64,000 bases of DNA from a virus (Duplodnaviria > Caudoviricetes), in the IMG/VR virus record IMGVR_UViG_3300032038_000070, positions 3,399 to 67,398 of that record; one strand, 5' to 3'. The number at the start of each line of letters is the position of its first letter. Within the stretch, counting starts at the first letter, position 1. Below are positions 36,526-42,007 of this stretch, one piece after another. The notes below the pieces were generated by a model that saw only the letters and a program-made list of their open reading frames with translations, ran no database searches and was not told the DNA's origin. The position numbers and the translations under genes were made by a program.

Positions 36526-36772
36526 TTGCAACACGGCTTGCAACACGAAGGCTCACGGGTCAGCTAAAATCAACGTGTTTCGGACGAGGATTCGGGTTCG
36601 ATTCCCGCTGCCTGCAGTTGAAGAAATCCCAGTGTTTTCAAGGTCTACAGACTTTGAGCACTGGGATTTTTGTCGTCTACACGACACGTTCTGACGCAGG
36701 AGCGACAAGGCGTGTCAGTCGCTTGCAACATGATTTTGCAACACGGCCTCGCCGTTCACATCTTGCAACACG
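36526..36772. other. attP of the tyrosine integrase: tRNA 3'-end core flanked by arm-type repeats
   Basis: Core CGGG-TTCGATT-CCCG-CTGCCTGC-A (36593-36616); TTGCAACAYG at 36526, 36538, 36723, 36736 and 36763. Confidence 0.8.
36624..36672. terminator. Stem-loop next to the att core (likely terminator)
   Basis: AAATCCCAGTG...CACTGGGATTT with flanking A/T tracts. Confidence 0.6.
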
Positions 36773-37776
36773 TTACCAAACACATCATTAATTTTCTCCT
36801 CCATCACCTTCTGTTCGGAATCCAGAGTATGACGGTACACGCGGTTCATCGTGTAGGACGTTGCCCATCCTCCCCGGGACATGATGTAAGCATCCGGGAT
36901 GCCGGCAGCGTGAGCGATAGACACGAAGGCATGACGCAGGTCGTGGAAGCGGAAGGTCGGGATGTCGTTCGCCTCAAGGAGCGCATGGAAGCGTTTAGAG
37001 ATCGTCCCGACAGAGAGCCGGGTGACGTAGCCCTGTTTCCGGATCAAGTCCGCAAGGAATGCCGGGAGAAGGATATGCCTGTTCGACTCGTCTGTCTTCG
37101 GATAATCCTTGATGGTCTGCCTGCCCTTCACGTCGACGACAGCAGCCCGGTGGACGTAGAGGACATTATCATCCCCAAGGTCTTTGATAGACGCAGCCAC
37201 GATCTCACCGCGACGCATAGGTGCAAGCGCAGCGAGCAGTACCGGCACCTCCATGTTCGTACCTTTTATAATTTGATAAAGGCGCTTCATCACCTCGGCA
37301 TCCGGGATGTTCATCTCTGGCCGGGAGAGCTTCGGCAGCGTCGGAGCGTGAGGCTCGTATCCGTTGTAGTTTAATACCGCATTAACAAGGTAGAAACAGT
37401 TCCGCACCGTTTTAGCGGACAAATCCTCGGCCAGAACATTGACTGCTCGCTGAAGGGCTTTAGTGTCTATTTCGTACAGCCTCATTTTAAGCAGCTCCGG
37501 GTAGTACGCAGCCAGAGACGACCGGATCGTGGTGTATCCCCGGATAGTGGACGGAGAGAGCACCGGTGTCTTTATCTTGATGTAATCGTTGATGGCCTTC
37601 TTCAGAATTAAAGAAGAAGTTTTCTCCCGGGAGAGCGTTGTGGAGAATTTCAGAGCCTCGAGCTGCGCGAGCTCCTTGGTCTCAGCCAAGAAGGACTTGT
37701 ACATCCGCTTCCCTTTTTCGTTGTACCCAACAAAGACCTGTGCTCTCCACATCCCGGAGGGGAGCTGAGTAGGCAT
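36715..37776 (-). CDS. int: Tyrosine integrase of phage B
   Basis: MRRGEI, FRFHDLRH, RGGW...M..VYRH catalytic R/H-x-x-R/Y; likely start MPTQ with a GGAGG RBS. Confidence 0.95.
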   Translation of the reverse strand: MPTQLPSGMWRAQVFVGYNEKGKRMYKSFLAETKELAQLEALKFSTTLSREKTSSLILKKAINDYIKIKTPVLSPSTIRGYTTIRSSLAAYYPELLKMRLYEIDTKALQRAVNVLAEDLSAKTVRNCFYLVNAVLNYNGYEPHAPTLPKLSRPEMNIPDAEVMKRLYQIIKGTNMEVPVLLAALAPMRRGEIVAASIKDLGDDNVLYVHRAAVVDVKGRQTIKDYPKTDESNRHILLPAFLADLIRKQGYVTRLSVGTISKRFHALLEANDIPTFRFHDLRHAFVSIAHAAGIPDAYIMSRGGWATSYTMNRVYRHTLDSEQKVMEEKINDVFGNVLQDVNGEAVLQNHVASD

Positions 37777-37777
37777 C

Positions 37778-38395
37778 TTACACCTCCCTCCTAATTTCAA
37801 CTACCTTCCCGGCAATGGTGACCGGGAGCTTCATTATTTCCTCATTCGTAAAGACCATCGGGTCGTACGCAGGATTCAGCGAGACAAGCGTAACCCCGGA
37901 GGTCGTCTTCTTGAGCTTCTTACAGCAGCCGTCGCAGCCGTTCACGATGGCAATTACCACATCCCCGGTCTCAGCATCATTCTGCTGCTTCACGACCACA
38001 ACATCCCCATCCATTATAAAAGGAGACATCGAGTCGCCTTTGATTTTGAGAGCGAAGAACTCACCGGTAGCCGCGAGCTTCCGAGAGATTTCTTCCTGCC
38101 CGATTATGTTCTCGACAGCAGAGATCGGTATGCCGGCAGCAACGCGGCCTAGCAGAGGAATCATCACTCCGTTAGACGCAGGAGGCATCTCCGCAGCTTC
38201 TCCCATTAGGAAGGAAGGAGTAACTCCCAGATAATCAGCAATCATCGACAGCCTTTTCGCGGAGGGAGTAGACCCTCGCTTCTGAGTGTTGTTCACATAT
38301 CCGTTTCCAAGACCAAGCGTAGTTTCGAGCTTCATCACAGTTATTCCGCGATCCTTGCAGAGAGCGCGAACCCTATCAGCAAATCCTTCCATCAT
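37778..38395 (-). CDS. LexA-like CI repressor (HTH plus S24 autopeptidase)
   Basis: PLLGRVAAG cleavage site, GDSM, CKKL. Confidence 0.93.
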   Translation of the reverse strand: MMEGFADRVRALCKDRGITVMKLETTLGLGNGYVNNTQKRGSTPSAKRLSMIADYLGVTPSFLMGEAAEMPPASNGVMIPLLGRVAAGIPISAVENIIGQEEISRKLAATGEFFALKIKGDSMSPFIMDGDVVVVKQQNDAETGDVVIAIVNGCDGCCKKLKKTTSGVTLVSLNPAYDPMVFTNEEIMKLPVTIAGKVVEIRREV

Positions 38396-38414
38396 AACCC
38401 TCCTTAAAAAATTT

Positions 38415-38498
38415 TTGAAATTTGTCTAAAAATTGCTTTTCATTTAGAAAAAAAGCGAGTATGATTATGATTGTAAGTTAGATTTAATTCTAACTTAC
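38415..38498 (+). promoter_or_regulatory. Phage B early promoter 1 with TAGA-N6-TCTA operators
   Basis: TTTTCA, 17 bp, TATGAT (38437-38465); palindrome GTAAGTTAGA-TTTAAT-TCTAACTTAC (38473-38498); near-match at 38415. Confidence 0.7.
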
Positions 38499-38546
38499 GG
38501 GTAGGGTACCATATTCGATTCTAAATTTCAAGAGGAGGCAGGAGCC

Positions 38547-41500
38547 ATGACAAAGACATACAGAGTGAAGATCACAACAGCAGCAGGAACACAGAGCAGC
38601 ATCATCACAGCTCGCAGCGCAGACAGCGCAGACAAGAAGGCCTACGGCATGATGCTCAAGGCAAAGGGCAGCAGATACATCGTTTACAGAATCGCAGCAT
38701 AAGGAGGTAACGAGATGGGAACATACAGAGAGCTTGTTGAGAAGGACAGAGCCGAATGGATTGGACAGAAGGTTTGGTTTGAAGGAGAGCAGTACACAGT
38801 AGTCGATGTCGATTATAACGGAGCGCTTCTGATTGACAAGAAAGCACGATTCACAGACACGACAGCAGTCAGCAGATTCCAGATTGAAAGGAGATGACGA
38901 CATGACAAACGAAAGAGCGATGCAGCACAGGATCATCGACAGTTGGCTCGACACTTGCTTCAACAAGAGGCATCAGACATTCGAAGAAGTTCTGGCAGGA
39001 GCCGAACGGCTTTACGAGGCCGGTGTGATGAGCCGGGCAGCTTACCGGATAGCGATCTACAGACTTACAGTCGAAACGCTCCACTAAGGAGCGTCTACCG
39101 AGGGACAGCCTCCCGGTACTGATGAGACAGGCTTCATATTGAAAGGAGAATAACGATGGTGGACTTCAGAGAGTACAGACAGGCAGTTAAGGAAAAGGTT
39201 TTAGAAATCAATACATTCGATAGATGCGGCAGCTTCCCTTGGAAGGCAAAGGTTCTGAAGAACGAGATTCGCCTCGCGAACAGCTACCTCGACGAGGGTA
39301 CACACTTCACAATCAAGTTCGTCGGCGACGAGGCCGAGCCGCTTACATGGGGCATCTTCGGATACAACACACTCGGCGAGCGCTTCACGATCCGCTGCAT
39401 CGGTGAGAGCAGATGGGACGATGGCGATACAGAGGCCTGCATCAGAATGGCAATCGACGATGCAAACAAGCACTTCAATTACTGCTACTAAGAAGGAGGA
39501 GAGACATGAGAGCAATCACATTCGAGACGACGAGGATTTACGACAACGGCATCTGCGGCGAAAAGCCGCTGAGATGCCAGTGGAGACAGGACAACGGAAG
39601 CCGGTGGTCAATCTGGACAGAATCATGGATCAACGGACAGTGGGTGAAAATCGACACAGGCTATCCACTGGAAAATGTTCTTGGAGCGGTCAACCGGTTC
39701 CGCAAAGACCCGGAGCAGTACATCATCAAGTTTGAGCTTATCTAAGGAGGAAGAGAGATGAAGAGAACAATCTACCAGAACAAGCGTGACGAAGACAAGT
39801 ACCTCGAGGTGGTGAGGTACAGCAGCGGTAACTACTACGCAGTCCAGTTCATGAAGTGGGGCAGCATCGTGAACAAGCTTGGCAGCAGGACAGGACGCAG
39901 ATTCCGGTGGACGAAGAGGAGCCTCGAGGCGCTCCTCGAGGACTACAGAGCGGTCGAGCCGTTCGAGATCAGACTGGTACACAAAGGAAGAATCTGGCAG
40001 CACGAAGCATAGGAGGAATGAGATGGCAAAGGGACTTACATACGAGGAGCTGATGGAATACGCGAAGCAGCACTACAACAAGGGAGGCGACAGCGTCTAC
40101 GAATGTTGGGACGAACGCACCTACAACGAGTACGTCGAGATGTTCGGGGCAATCACGAAGCGCAAAGCTCTGGCGATGTTCCGAATCGACTACGAGGTAA
40201 CGAGAGATCGGATGGGATGGTAAGGAGGAGAGAGATGGAGTTCACAAGAGAAGATATCGAGAAGGTTTACGACGAGCTTGACAGGAGGATGGAAATCGAC
40301 ATCAGAGATGAAGCCATCCCGTGGAACGGAGATAGCATCCGAGAAGAGAGAGCATCCCGGTTACAGGGAGTATACGGAACAATCATGGCGCTCGCCCCGG
40401 ATAAGAATTGGCAGGAAGTCGTAAGGTGGTTCGGTGAGATTGAGGAAGAGAGATACGGAGGTATGAGATGAGAAGAACAGCAATCGTATTTGACGCAGCG
40501 AGAGAGGGATACGGGATTGACCAGATTCGCAATCCCATGACGGTAAAGGAGCTGAGAGAGATTCTCGATGATTGTGAGGACGACGATCTCGTAATACTGT
40601 CCCACGACAACGGATACACATACGGCTCGCCGAGGTACCCGGCATACTACTGCGAAGGCAGCGACGGAGAGTGGGGAGAGATTTGAGGAGGAAGCATGAG
40701 AGCAGAGTTCGTAGAGGTCAGATATTGGGACGGCAAAATCAATGACGTGTGCGTCACAGCGTTCACGAGAGCGGAGGCTCTGGACAAGATAGAGGAGCTC
40801 GTCAAGAACAAGGGATACATCATGAACATCGAACAGTTCAGCGTACCGGTAGGAGGAGAGAAATGAGAGCAGGAGACAGAGACGACTGGTTCGAGCTTTG
40901 GTTCGAGGACAAGAGAAGCATCGAAGAAACGATGATTCGGAACATGATAGCAGACATCGAGGCCGGGTACGATCCGACCGGGAACATCATCAAGATGGAG
41001 CGCGACGAGATACAGCAGTACAGGAAGGAGGTAGATGATCAGATAGAGCGGTTCAAGGAGATGGAAGACGCAGCCGTCAACCGGTGGTGCTATTACGACA
41101 TGAAGAAGAGAGGAGCAATCGCATGAACAAGTACAAAGTCTATTACAGGCCGAAGAAGGACAATAACTACAGGGAGGCAGAGATCGCAGCCCCATCCAAG
41201 AAGCAGGCAGCTCAGCAAGTACACGAGGCATTCGAGGACTACGGAATGCCGGTCAAGATAGTTTACATTGAGGAGGTAGAAGCATGACAGACAAGATTAC
41301 AACAACAGATTTAGCAGACTTCGGCTACAGGGAGCTTGGCCTGCTTAGAGAGATCATCGAAGCTATGGAAGACCACGGCCTCCCGGAAGACTTCGAGAAC
41401 TGCGGAGTCACTCCGATGTTCAATACTCACAGCGGAGAGGTCTTCCTCACAAACGACGAGTACCAAGTAGCGATGGAACGCGGAGGCCGGTTGGAGAGTT

Positions 41501-41696: not shown

Positions 41697-41766
41697 TAGA
41701 AAAATGTCTAATTTAATTGTTTACATTTCGAGTTCTGTATAATACAATGAACTAGACATTTTTCTA
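41697..41766 (+). promoter_or_regulatory. Phage B early promoter 2 flanked by inverted operators
   Basis: TAGAAAAATGTCTA (41697) and its exact reverse complement (41753); TTTACA, 17 bp, TACAAT (41720-41748). Confidence 0.75.
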
Positions 41767-41782
41767 AGGAGGACAAGAAATA

Positions 41783-42007
41783 ATGATTCTAGCAGAGAAC
41801 ATATTAGCGTATTGCGAGATCAACGGCATCAGCAGACAGGAGTTCGAGATACGCTGCGGCCTCAGCAACGGACTCGTCTACAAGTGGGAAAGAGGAATTG
41901 CAAAGAATCCCACATACTCGACGCTTACAAAGATTGAGAGAGCTACCCGGATACCTGTTAGCCGTTGGATGAAAAAAGGAGGGATATATGCAAAGAGAAA
42001 AACCTAA
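41783..42007 (+). CDS. Cro-like XRE HTH protein
   Basis: ISRQEFEIRCGLSNGLVYKWERG. Confidence 0.82.
   Translation: MILAENILAYCEINGISRQEFEIRCGLSNGLVYKWERGIAKNPTYSTLTKIERATRIPVSRWMKKGGIYAKRKT

Follow-up and report, generated by a model that had tools for sequence, protein, structure and literature searches.

A probably active type II hammerhead ribozyme with a pseudoknot between two genes of a Caudoviricetes phage operon

The hammerhead locus

The DNA analysed here, referred to as the window, is a stretch of 64,000 nucleotides (nt) of the Caudoviricetes IMG/VR record IMGVR_UViG_3300032038_000070, and all positions are given in its coordinates. Within a rightward block of small genes, close to a gene for a CI/LexA-type repressor, the window carries an element at a gene junction of the phage operon (39069-39136), which we consider likely to be a genuine, probably active type II hammerhead ribozyme stabilised by a pseudoknot. 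The parts of the ribozyme, the two genes flanking it and the neighbouring features of the lysogeny region are summarised in Table 1.

Table 1. Predicted parts of the hammerhead ribozyme and features of its surroundings (window coordinates)
Feature	Position	Strand	Basis or remark
Type II hammerhead ribozyme, full length	39069-39136	+	Rfam RF02276
First ribozyme nucleotide, A	39069	+	sequence
Stem II, 5' strand GUC (partner GAC, 39126-39128)	39070-39072	+	C39072-G39126 is the C11.1-G10.1 pair
Core GAAA (G12 A13 A14 A15.1)	39073-39076	+	sequence; A15.1 pairs with U39094 (U16.1)
Stem III hairpin, 7 base pairs (bp), ACGCUCC/GGAGCGU	39076-39094	+	39076-39082 with 39088-39094; sequence and minimum free energy (MFE) fold
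Stem III loop ACUAA	39083-39087	+	sequence
TAA stop of the 61-amino-acid (aa) gene, within the stem III loop	39085-39087	+	sequence
GUC cleavage triplet	39093-39095	+	C17 is 39095
Predicted cleavage site, C17 (39095) / U1.1 (39096)	39095-39096	+	hammerhead consensus as aligned by Rfam
Stem I hairpin UACCGAGGGACAGCCUCCCGGUA (UACCG.AG...CC.CGGUA)	39096-39118	+	sequence, fold
Pseudoknot, 5' strand AGCCU in loop I	39107-39111	+	pairs with AGGCU 39129-39133, 5 bp
Core CUGAUGA (C3-A9)	39119-39125	+	sequence
Stem II, 3' strand GAC	39126-39128	+	sequence
Pseudoknot, 3' strand AGGCU, directly after stem II	39129-39133	+	sequence
Upstream 61-aa gene; last six codons GUC GAA ACG CUC CAC UAA form the 5' half of the ribozyme	38902-39087	+	GGAG 8 nt before ATG
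Ribosome-binding site (RBS) GAAAGGAGA (about 39142-39150) and downstream 111-aa gene (ATG 39156)	39142-39491	+	first cistron of the predicted 3' product
Tyrosine integrase	36715-37800	-	domain scan
Helix-turn-helix (HTH) and S24-peptidase (CI/LexA-type) repressor	37778-38395	-	domain scan
Promoter-like sites facing away from the repressor	38437-38471	+	consensus match only
Promoter-like sites	41720-41748	+	consensus match only
HTH_3 cro-like protein	41783-42007	+	domain scan

A search with Rfam cmscan matched the element to Hammerhead_II (RF02276) over the entire model (positions 1-66 of 66) on the + strand, with a score of 49.2 bits against a gathering threshold of 37 and an E-value of 4.5e-7, obtained with both strands of the 64-kb window searched against all 4227 Rfam families. 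The RF02276 model has exactly one site in the whole 67-kb virus record and gave no match in 14 control genomes. With E values of up to 1 allowed, neither a second hammerhead nor any other Rfam ribozyme was found in the window or in the 67-kb record; at that limit the sole other Rfam match in the window is a 15-nt fragment of the T-arm of transfer-messenger RNA (tmRNA).

The invariant hammerhead core is complete at 39073-39125 and comprises CUGAUGA, GAA, the A15.1-U16.1 pair and a C (not G) at position 17. The elements follow one another in the permuted order of type II, i.e. stem II 5' strand, GAAA, stem III hairpin, GUC, stem I hairpin, CUGAUGA and stem II 3' strand, and form a three-way junction in which loops cap stems I and III and stem II is open. 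The pseudoknot between loop I and the nucleotides 3' of stem II consists of 5 bp; most type II members have one of at least four pairs. A preliminary description of this DNA had placed a complete type II core, three helices and a 5-bp pseudoknot at this locus, all of which agree with the sequence at every position it gave, and it had proposed the Rfam scan, whose threshold is passed.

Relatives and covariation

Related copies were gathered with a pattern in which stem III and the core of the window element were fixed: GAAACGCTCC N3-9 GGAGCGTC N15-40 CTGATGA. Among the matches listed, more than 117 IMG/VR contigs and a further 28 bacterial genome contigs contain a copy with this stem III. The latter belong mostly to Bacillota (Lachnospiraceae, Oscillospiraceae, Selenomonadaceae, Acetatifactor, Roseburia, Paenibacillus and Aneurinibacillus), with single matches in Alphaproteobacteria, Deferribacterales and Poribacteria. 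Copies sharing this stem III number more than 150 across gut-phage contigs and genomes, mostly of Bacillota. A variant pattern with the stem II type of the window (GUC...GAC) added 27 metagenome contigs and 8 viral contigs, none closely related to the present phage, and had no match in genome contigs. When ten relatives were tested with Rfam, all ten passed, at 39-69 bits.

Covariation was counted in 80 distinct aligned copies, with the structure defined as stems I, II and III plus the pseudoknot. In this alignment 96.6% of the cells are paired, compared with 33-41% in controls with the 3' partners shifted by 1-3 columns. Compensatory changes (both sides altered) are found in 13 pairs, namely all 7 pairs of stem I, 2 of the 3 of stem II and 4 of the 5 of the pseudoknot, the last including the variants GGUC/GACC, AGCC/GGCU, CGCC/GGCG and GCCC/GGGC; none of 500 shuffles reached any of the observed measures. 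GAAA (80 of 80 copies) and CUGAUGA are invariant in the alignment, both being fixed by the search pattern, and stem III, likewise invariant by design of the search, is uninformative for covariation. In a bovine-gut contig, stem I and the pseudoknot are the same, and stem III differs but still pairs (AGCCC/GGGCU). The stem III loops of the relatives vary freely in sequence and are 3-9 nt long. Compared with its relatives, the window copy has a shorter stem II junction (no U after CUGAUGA) and no insertions or deletions from stem I through the pseudoknot, and hence keeps the geometry of stem lengths and pseudoknot on which rapid cleavage was shown to depend (PMC3088659).

The covariation of stems I and II and of the pseudoknot argues that the match is more than chance. 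We regard it as very improbable that the element is an inactive relic or a fortuitous resemblance to the hammerhead consensus, even though some of the consensus-like candidates of Perreault et al. proved inactive when tested (PMC3088659) and Rfam marks four non-standard pairs in the upper stem I of the match. These flagged "pairs" are loop nucleotides that belong to the covarying pseudoknot; moreover, the score lies 12 bits above the gathering threshold, with the E-value of 4.5e-7, and no core position deviates.

In the MFE fold of the window copy, the 3' tail UUCAU (39133-39137) can pair with AUGAG of the core (39122-39126), in competition with the pseudoknot and stem II. Such a tail complementary to the core is without counterpart in most aligned relatives (majority tail AGACCAGA...).

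Several relatives (L171:261-1515, L133, L135, L138 and L139) have two or three hammerheads on a single strand, separated by 300-1400 nt and each preceded by a stop codon, an arrangement that matches the published flanking of genes by hammerheads. A further hammerhead, with an AGCCU/AGGCU pseudoknot identical to that of the window, was found in a Lachnospiraceae metagenome-assembled genome from goat omasum (L136:1637-5916); in the same block lie genes for an Amidoligase_2 protein and for a gamma-glutamyl cyclotransferase-like (GGACT) protein.

Position of the upstream stop codon

The upstream gene of the window ends in the stem III loop, with the predicted cut 8 nt after its stop codon, as the preliminary description had noted and as the sequence confirms. 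How common this arrangement is was assessed by a census of stop positions in 159 distinct contexts from relatives whose upstream sequence was long enough, gathered by the stem III and core patterns of the window. In 122 of them (77%) the stop of the upstream gene lies directly against the ribozyme's 5' end, no more than 9 nt from G12, usually in the form UAG-CC-GAAA or UAA-GCC-GAAA, 5-6 nt before G12; in 13 contexts it lies farther upstream. Only two of the 159 (L142 and L161) share the stop position of the window copy, within the loop of stem III. Within this collection, a stop in the loop is seen to be a rare layout variant, present in about 1% of the relatives gathered.

The overlap of the 61-aa gene with the ribozyme was examined with close relatives of the operon, about 90-95% identical, which are present in goat, sheep and bovine gut metagenome contigs. 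The five listed substitutions that the goat and sheep contigs have in common within the 61-aa open reading frame (ORF) all fall on the third codon position, and four of them are synonymous, which shows this ORF to be a real gene that does read into the ribozyme. In the 111-aa gene, two substitutions common to relatives are synonymous. At the position where most relatives have their stop, the window has CAG (39068-39070), out of frame with the 61-aa gene, and hence the gene runs on into the ribozyme. Without the TAA of the loop its frame would stay open to 39151-39153, past the cut, so that every cleaved message would lack a stop codon. Upstream of C17, the five-nt stem III loop is the sole sequence free of core or pairing constraint. 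The stop in the loop probably reflects this constraint and not a switch, as the overlapping gene must end before the cut and the loop alone is unconstrained there.

Downstream of the ribozyme the layout of the relatives is equally regular: an RBS of the GAAAGG type follows directly after the pseudoknot, and the start codon is mostly located 22-24 or 34 nt after CUGAUGA. The order of stop codon, ribozyme and RBS across the 159 contexts fits a portable intercistronic processing cassette, and the conserved "A g" that opens the Rfam consensus may be the end of the upstream stop codon. A layout with an abutting stop and a following RBS was not found stated in Perreault et al. (2011) (PMC3088659), in which the term "stop codon" has 0 occurrences.

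The preliminary description had read the wrapping of the ribozyme around a stop codon as a designed coupling to translation termination, and the census speaks against such a design. In a translation-gated ribozyme, a ribosome terminating on the loop TAA would melt stems II and III, so that cleavage would report or obey translation of the upstream gene. The size of the ribosome footprint means that a ribosome terminating within the ribozyme must unfold it, and in the 122 contexts with a stop at most 9 nt from G12 and an RBS directly after the pseudoknot the packing is so close that the fold of most members would be incompatible with a ribosome on either side. We nevertheless judge gating of this kind to be unlikely: the loop position is not conserved, the loop itself is free in length as well as in sequence, and the close packing is equally well explained by the compactness of phage genomes or by a cassette equipped with a stop and an RBS of its own. 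In addition, pseudoknot hammerheads cut at more than 1 per min (PMC3088659), a rate at which the reaction would normally be complete before a ribosome passes or in the interval between two ribosomes. Unfolding of the ribozyme by the ribosome is nearly as true of the majority layout, in which the stop abuts the element, and its regulatory use is without support. A related proposal, to which we give an equally small chance, is that the tight sandwich of stop and RBS is functional, with the stop in the loop as its extreme form, and that cutting would take place only while no terminating or initiating ribosome is present. If so, cleavage would gauge how far translation lags behind transcription, or how fast the upstream gene is translated, and would decide accordingly what becomes of the early genes downstream.

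Operon context and flanking genes

The rightward block is made up of some 13 small ORFs on the + strand, which are closely spaced and all have a Shine-Dalgarno sequence, and the ribozyme sits between the third (61 aa) and the fourth (111 aa) of them. No terminator-like site was found on the + strand between 38.3 and 42.3 kb, and the promoter-like sites nearest the repressor gene (38437-38471) probably mark the start of the polycistronic transcript that bears the ribozyme. The setting is that of a repressor-proximal, rightward polycistronic block. The phage is temperate, and its host is probably among gut Bacillota.

The ten small ORFs around the ribozyme were compared with Pfam and PHROGs, and none was assigned to a family of known function; the scan yielded one significant PHROG of unknown function and two weak sub-threshold matches. 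The 61-aa and 111-aa proteins are both without a Pfam or PHROG match, three further small ORFs of the block had no match in Pfam, and ten representative downstream proteins of the relatives had none in Pfam or PHROGs. A blastn search of 38400-40100 against 50,697 phage records gave no match. When the two flanking proteins were used as queries against IMG/VR proteins, the downstream one gave one weak partial match and the upstream one none. The label of an anti-defence mRNA, given to this transcript in the preliminary description, is therefore unsupported by the ten ORFs (Pfam, PHROGs) and the three others (Pfam), although the absence of a Pfam or PHROG match leaves room for a new anti-defence protein.

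The gene content of the block differs between close relatives. In a sheep-gut contig of about 94% identity, the fifth small gene (39505-39744) is replaced by 337 other letters, at gene junctions, and 40417-40695 is replaced by 57 letters. From such contig sequences, close relatives are seen to exchange whole cistrons at gene junctions.

On a larger scale, the small proteins encoded beside the copies with the same stem III (L003-L147) form 27 unrelated clusters upstream and 39 unrelated ones downstream, and the presence of the copies in several phyla amid unrelated genes suggests a mobile junction element. It could be argued that the sequence of about 70 nt matters mainly as DNA, as a shared junction at which cassettes are exchanged by homologous recombination, and that its activity is secondary or that it is a selfish hitch-hiker. 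Near-identical copies between so many unrelated neighbours, hosts ranging from Bacillota to Alphaproteobacteria, Deferribacterales and Poribacteria, and the swapping of whole cistrons exactly at junctions (e.g., 39505-39744) would all agree with such a role. The compensated base pairs of stems I and II and of the pseudoknot, on the other hand, show that selection acts on the RNA fold and not on DNA identity alone, and other junctions of the operon swap genes without a ribozyme, the record having one hammerhead only. A role mainly as DNA thus appears improbable, slightly more so than gating by translation.

Outside the block, the tmRNA T-arm fragment mentioned above is a perfect 15-nt match, CGGGUUCGAUUCCCG (36593-36607), with tmRNA-like flanks (36575-36615), about 100 nt from the end of the integrase gene. 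No whole tRNA or tmRNA was found in the window by ARAGORN. The fragment is probably the core of the attachment site, a copy taken from the host's ssrA gene at its 3' end.

Proposed processing of the transcript

The chemistry of the hammerhead family is established and prophage hammerheads have been tested in publications, and on these grounds we infer cleavage of the transcript and its consequences for RNA stability. What the sequence comparisons show directly is membership in the family, the fold, its covariation, the layout and the overlap with coding sequence. The nascent RNA would fold, the pseudoknot would dock stems I and II, and the chain would be cut between C39095 and U39096. The resulting 5' product would contain three small cistrons, keep the TAA 8 nt from its end and terminate in the stem III hairpin with a 2',3'-cyclic phosphate; on this product the hairpin has a predicted stability of -16.6 kcal/mol (z -2.55). 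The 3' product would begin with a 5'-hydroxyl at the base of the stem I hairpin and carry about ten small cistrons, the first of them with its RBS (about 39142-39150) and ATG (39156) intact, as had been expected in the preliminary description. By such a cut the halves of the operon would become separate RNAs, whose stability and translation would no longer be linked. Masking of the RBS, relieved by cleavage, was also considered and was rejected, as the folds before and after cleavage are without strong RBS sequestration.

Several points weigh against the interpretation of the element as an active ribozyme that processes the operon. The gain of its MFE fold over shuffled sequences is modest (z -1.83), as is to be expected of a fold made up of a junction and a pseudoknot. 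One related sheep-gut contig has a compensating pair of an insertion and a deletion in the 5' strand of stem I, with a G inserted after 39096 and base 39101 deleted. The direction in which the cut would affect the stability of the downstream RNA is not predictable. In Bacillota, 5'-hydroxyl ends can be targets of RNase J1, for which the glmS ribozyme is the precedent, and 5'-terminal hairpins protect RNA. Finally, the biological purpose of phage hammerheads is in general still undefined (PMC6765202), and separating the fates of operon halves is a purpose proposed, never proven, for such ribozymes (PMC3088659; PMC6765202).

Comparison with known systems

The window copy adds one instance to the thousands of known bacterial and phage hammerheads (PMC6765202). 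The novelty implied by the preliminary description falls away, since ribozymes of the same type and with the same kind of pseudoknot, including some next to ardA, were published in 2011 from prophage polycistronic RNAs (PMC3088659). Two aspects of the present locus may be of use. The 159-context census, mildly useful in itself, documents the regular layout of stop, ribozyme and RBS, and the natural overlap of a gene with a hammerhead, with the stop in a loop, is a handy construct for asking whether translation disturbs ribozyme folding in vivo.

The glmS ribozyme has an unrelated fold and requires a metabolite cofactor, and its 5'-hydroxyl product has an altered lifetime. Both glmS (mentioned in PMC6765202) and the candidate described here are self-cleaving RNAs, the latter by prediction, within a bacterial mRNA, and they differ in that nothing suggests a ligand for the window hammerhead.

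Three type II hammerheads of Desulfovibrio, located near phage-like genes, were found to be active in vivo by cyPhyRNA-seq (PMC8782182). The window element resembles these ribozymes of Desulfovibrio vulgaris in its type II architecture and its location near phage-like and hypothetical genes; it differs from them in host phylum and sequence, and the in vivo cleavage is a feature of the Desulfovibrio ribozymes. Triple hammerheads at ardA of Agrobacterium tumefaciens and a single one upstream of ardA of Legionella (PMC3088659) are likewise placed upstream of genes of mobile-element operons, and they provide the published precedent for the idea of ribozymes that process anti-restriction messages. 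In contrast, no neighbour in the window resembles ArdA or a known anti-defence family in the Pfam and PHROG scans, and an anti-defence link of the window ribozyme is unsupported, positional guesswork.

A close parallel is provided by the type II hammerheads of RF02276 with a loop I pseudoknot, which were described in 2011 from prophage polycistronic RNAs, where they lie between small unknown genes, and which cleave within polycistronic RNAs of about 2 kb, both in vitro and in vivo (Escherichia coli) (PMC3088659). The window element has in common with them (i) the permuted topology, (ii) the short, open stem II, (iii) the invariant core, (iv) the pseudoknot of loop I with the 3' tail, and (v) the habitat in a prophage-type polycistronic RNA amid small unknown genes. 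It departs from the multi-hammerhead arrangement of Perreault et al. (2011) in being a single copy, not one of several flanking a gene, and from RF02276 members in that the gene before it extends over the 5' third of the ribozyme, with its stop codon in the loop of stem III. At the level of sequence, the window ribozyme thus displays every defining feature of the type II hammerheads.

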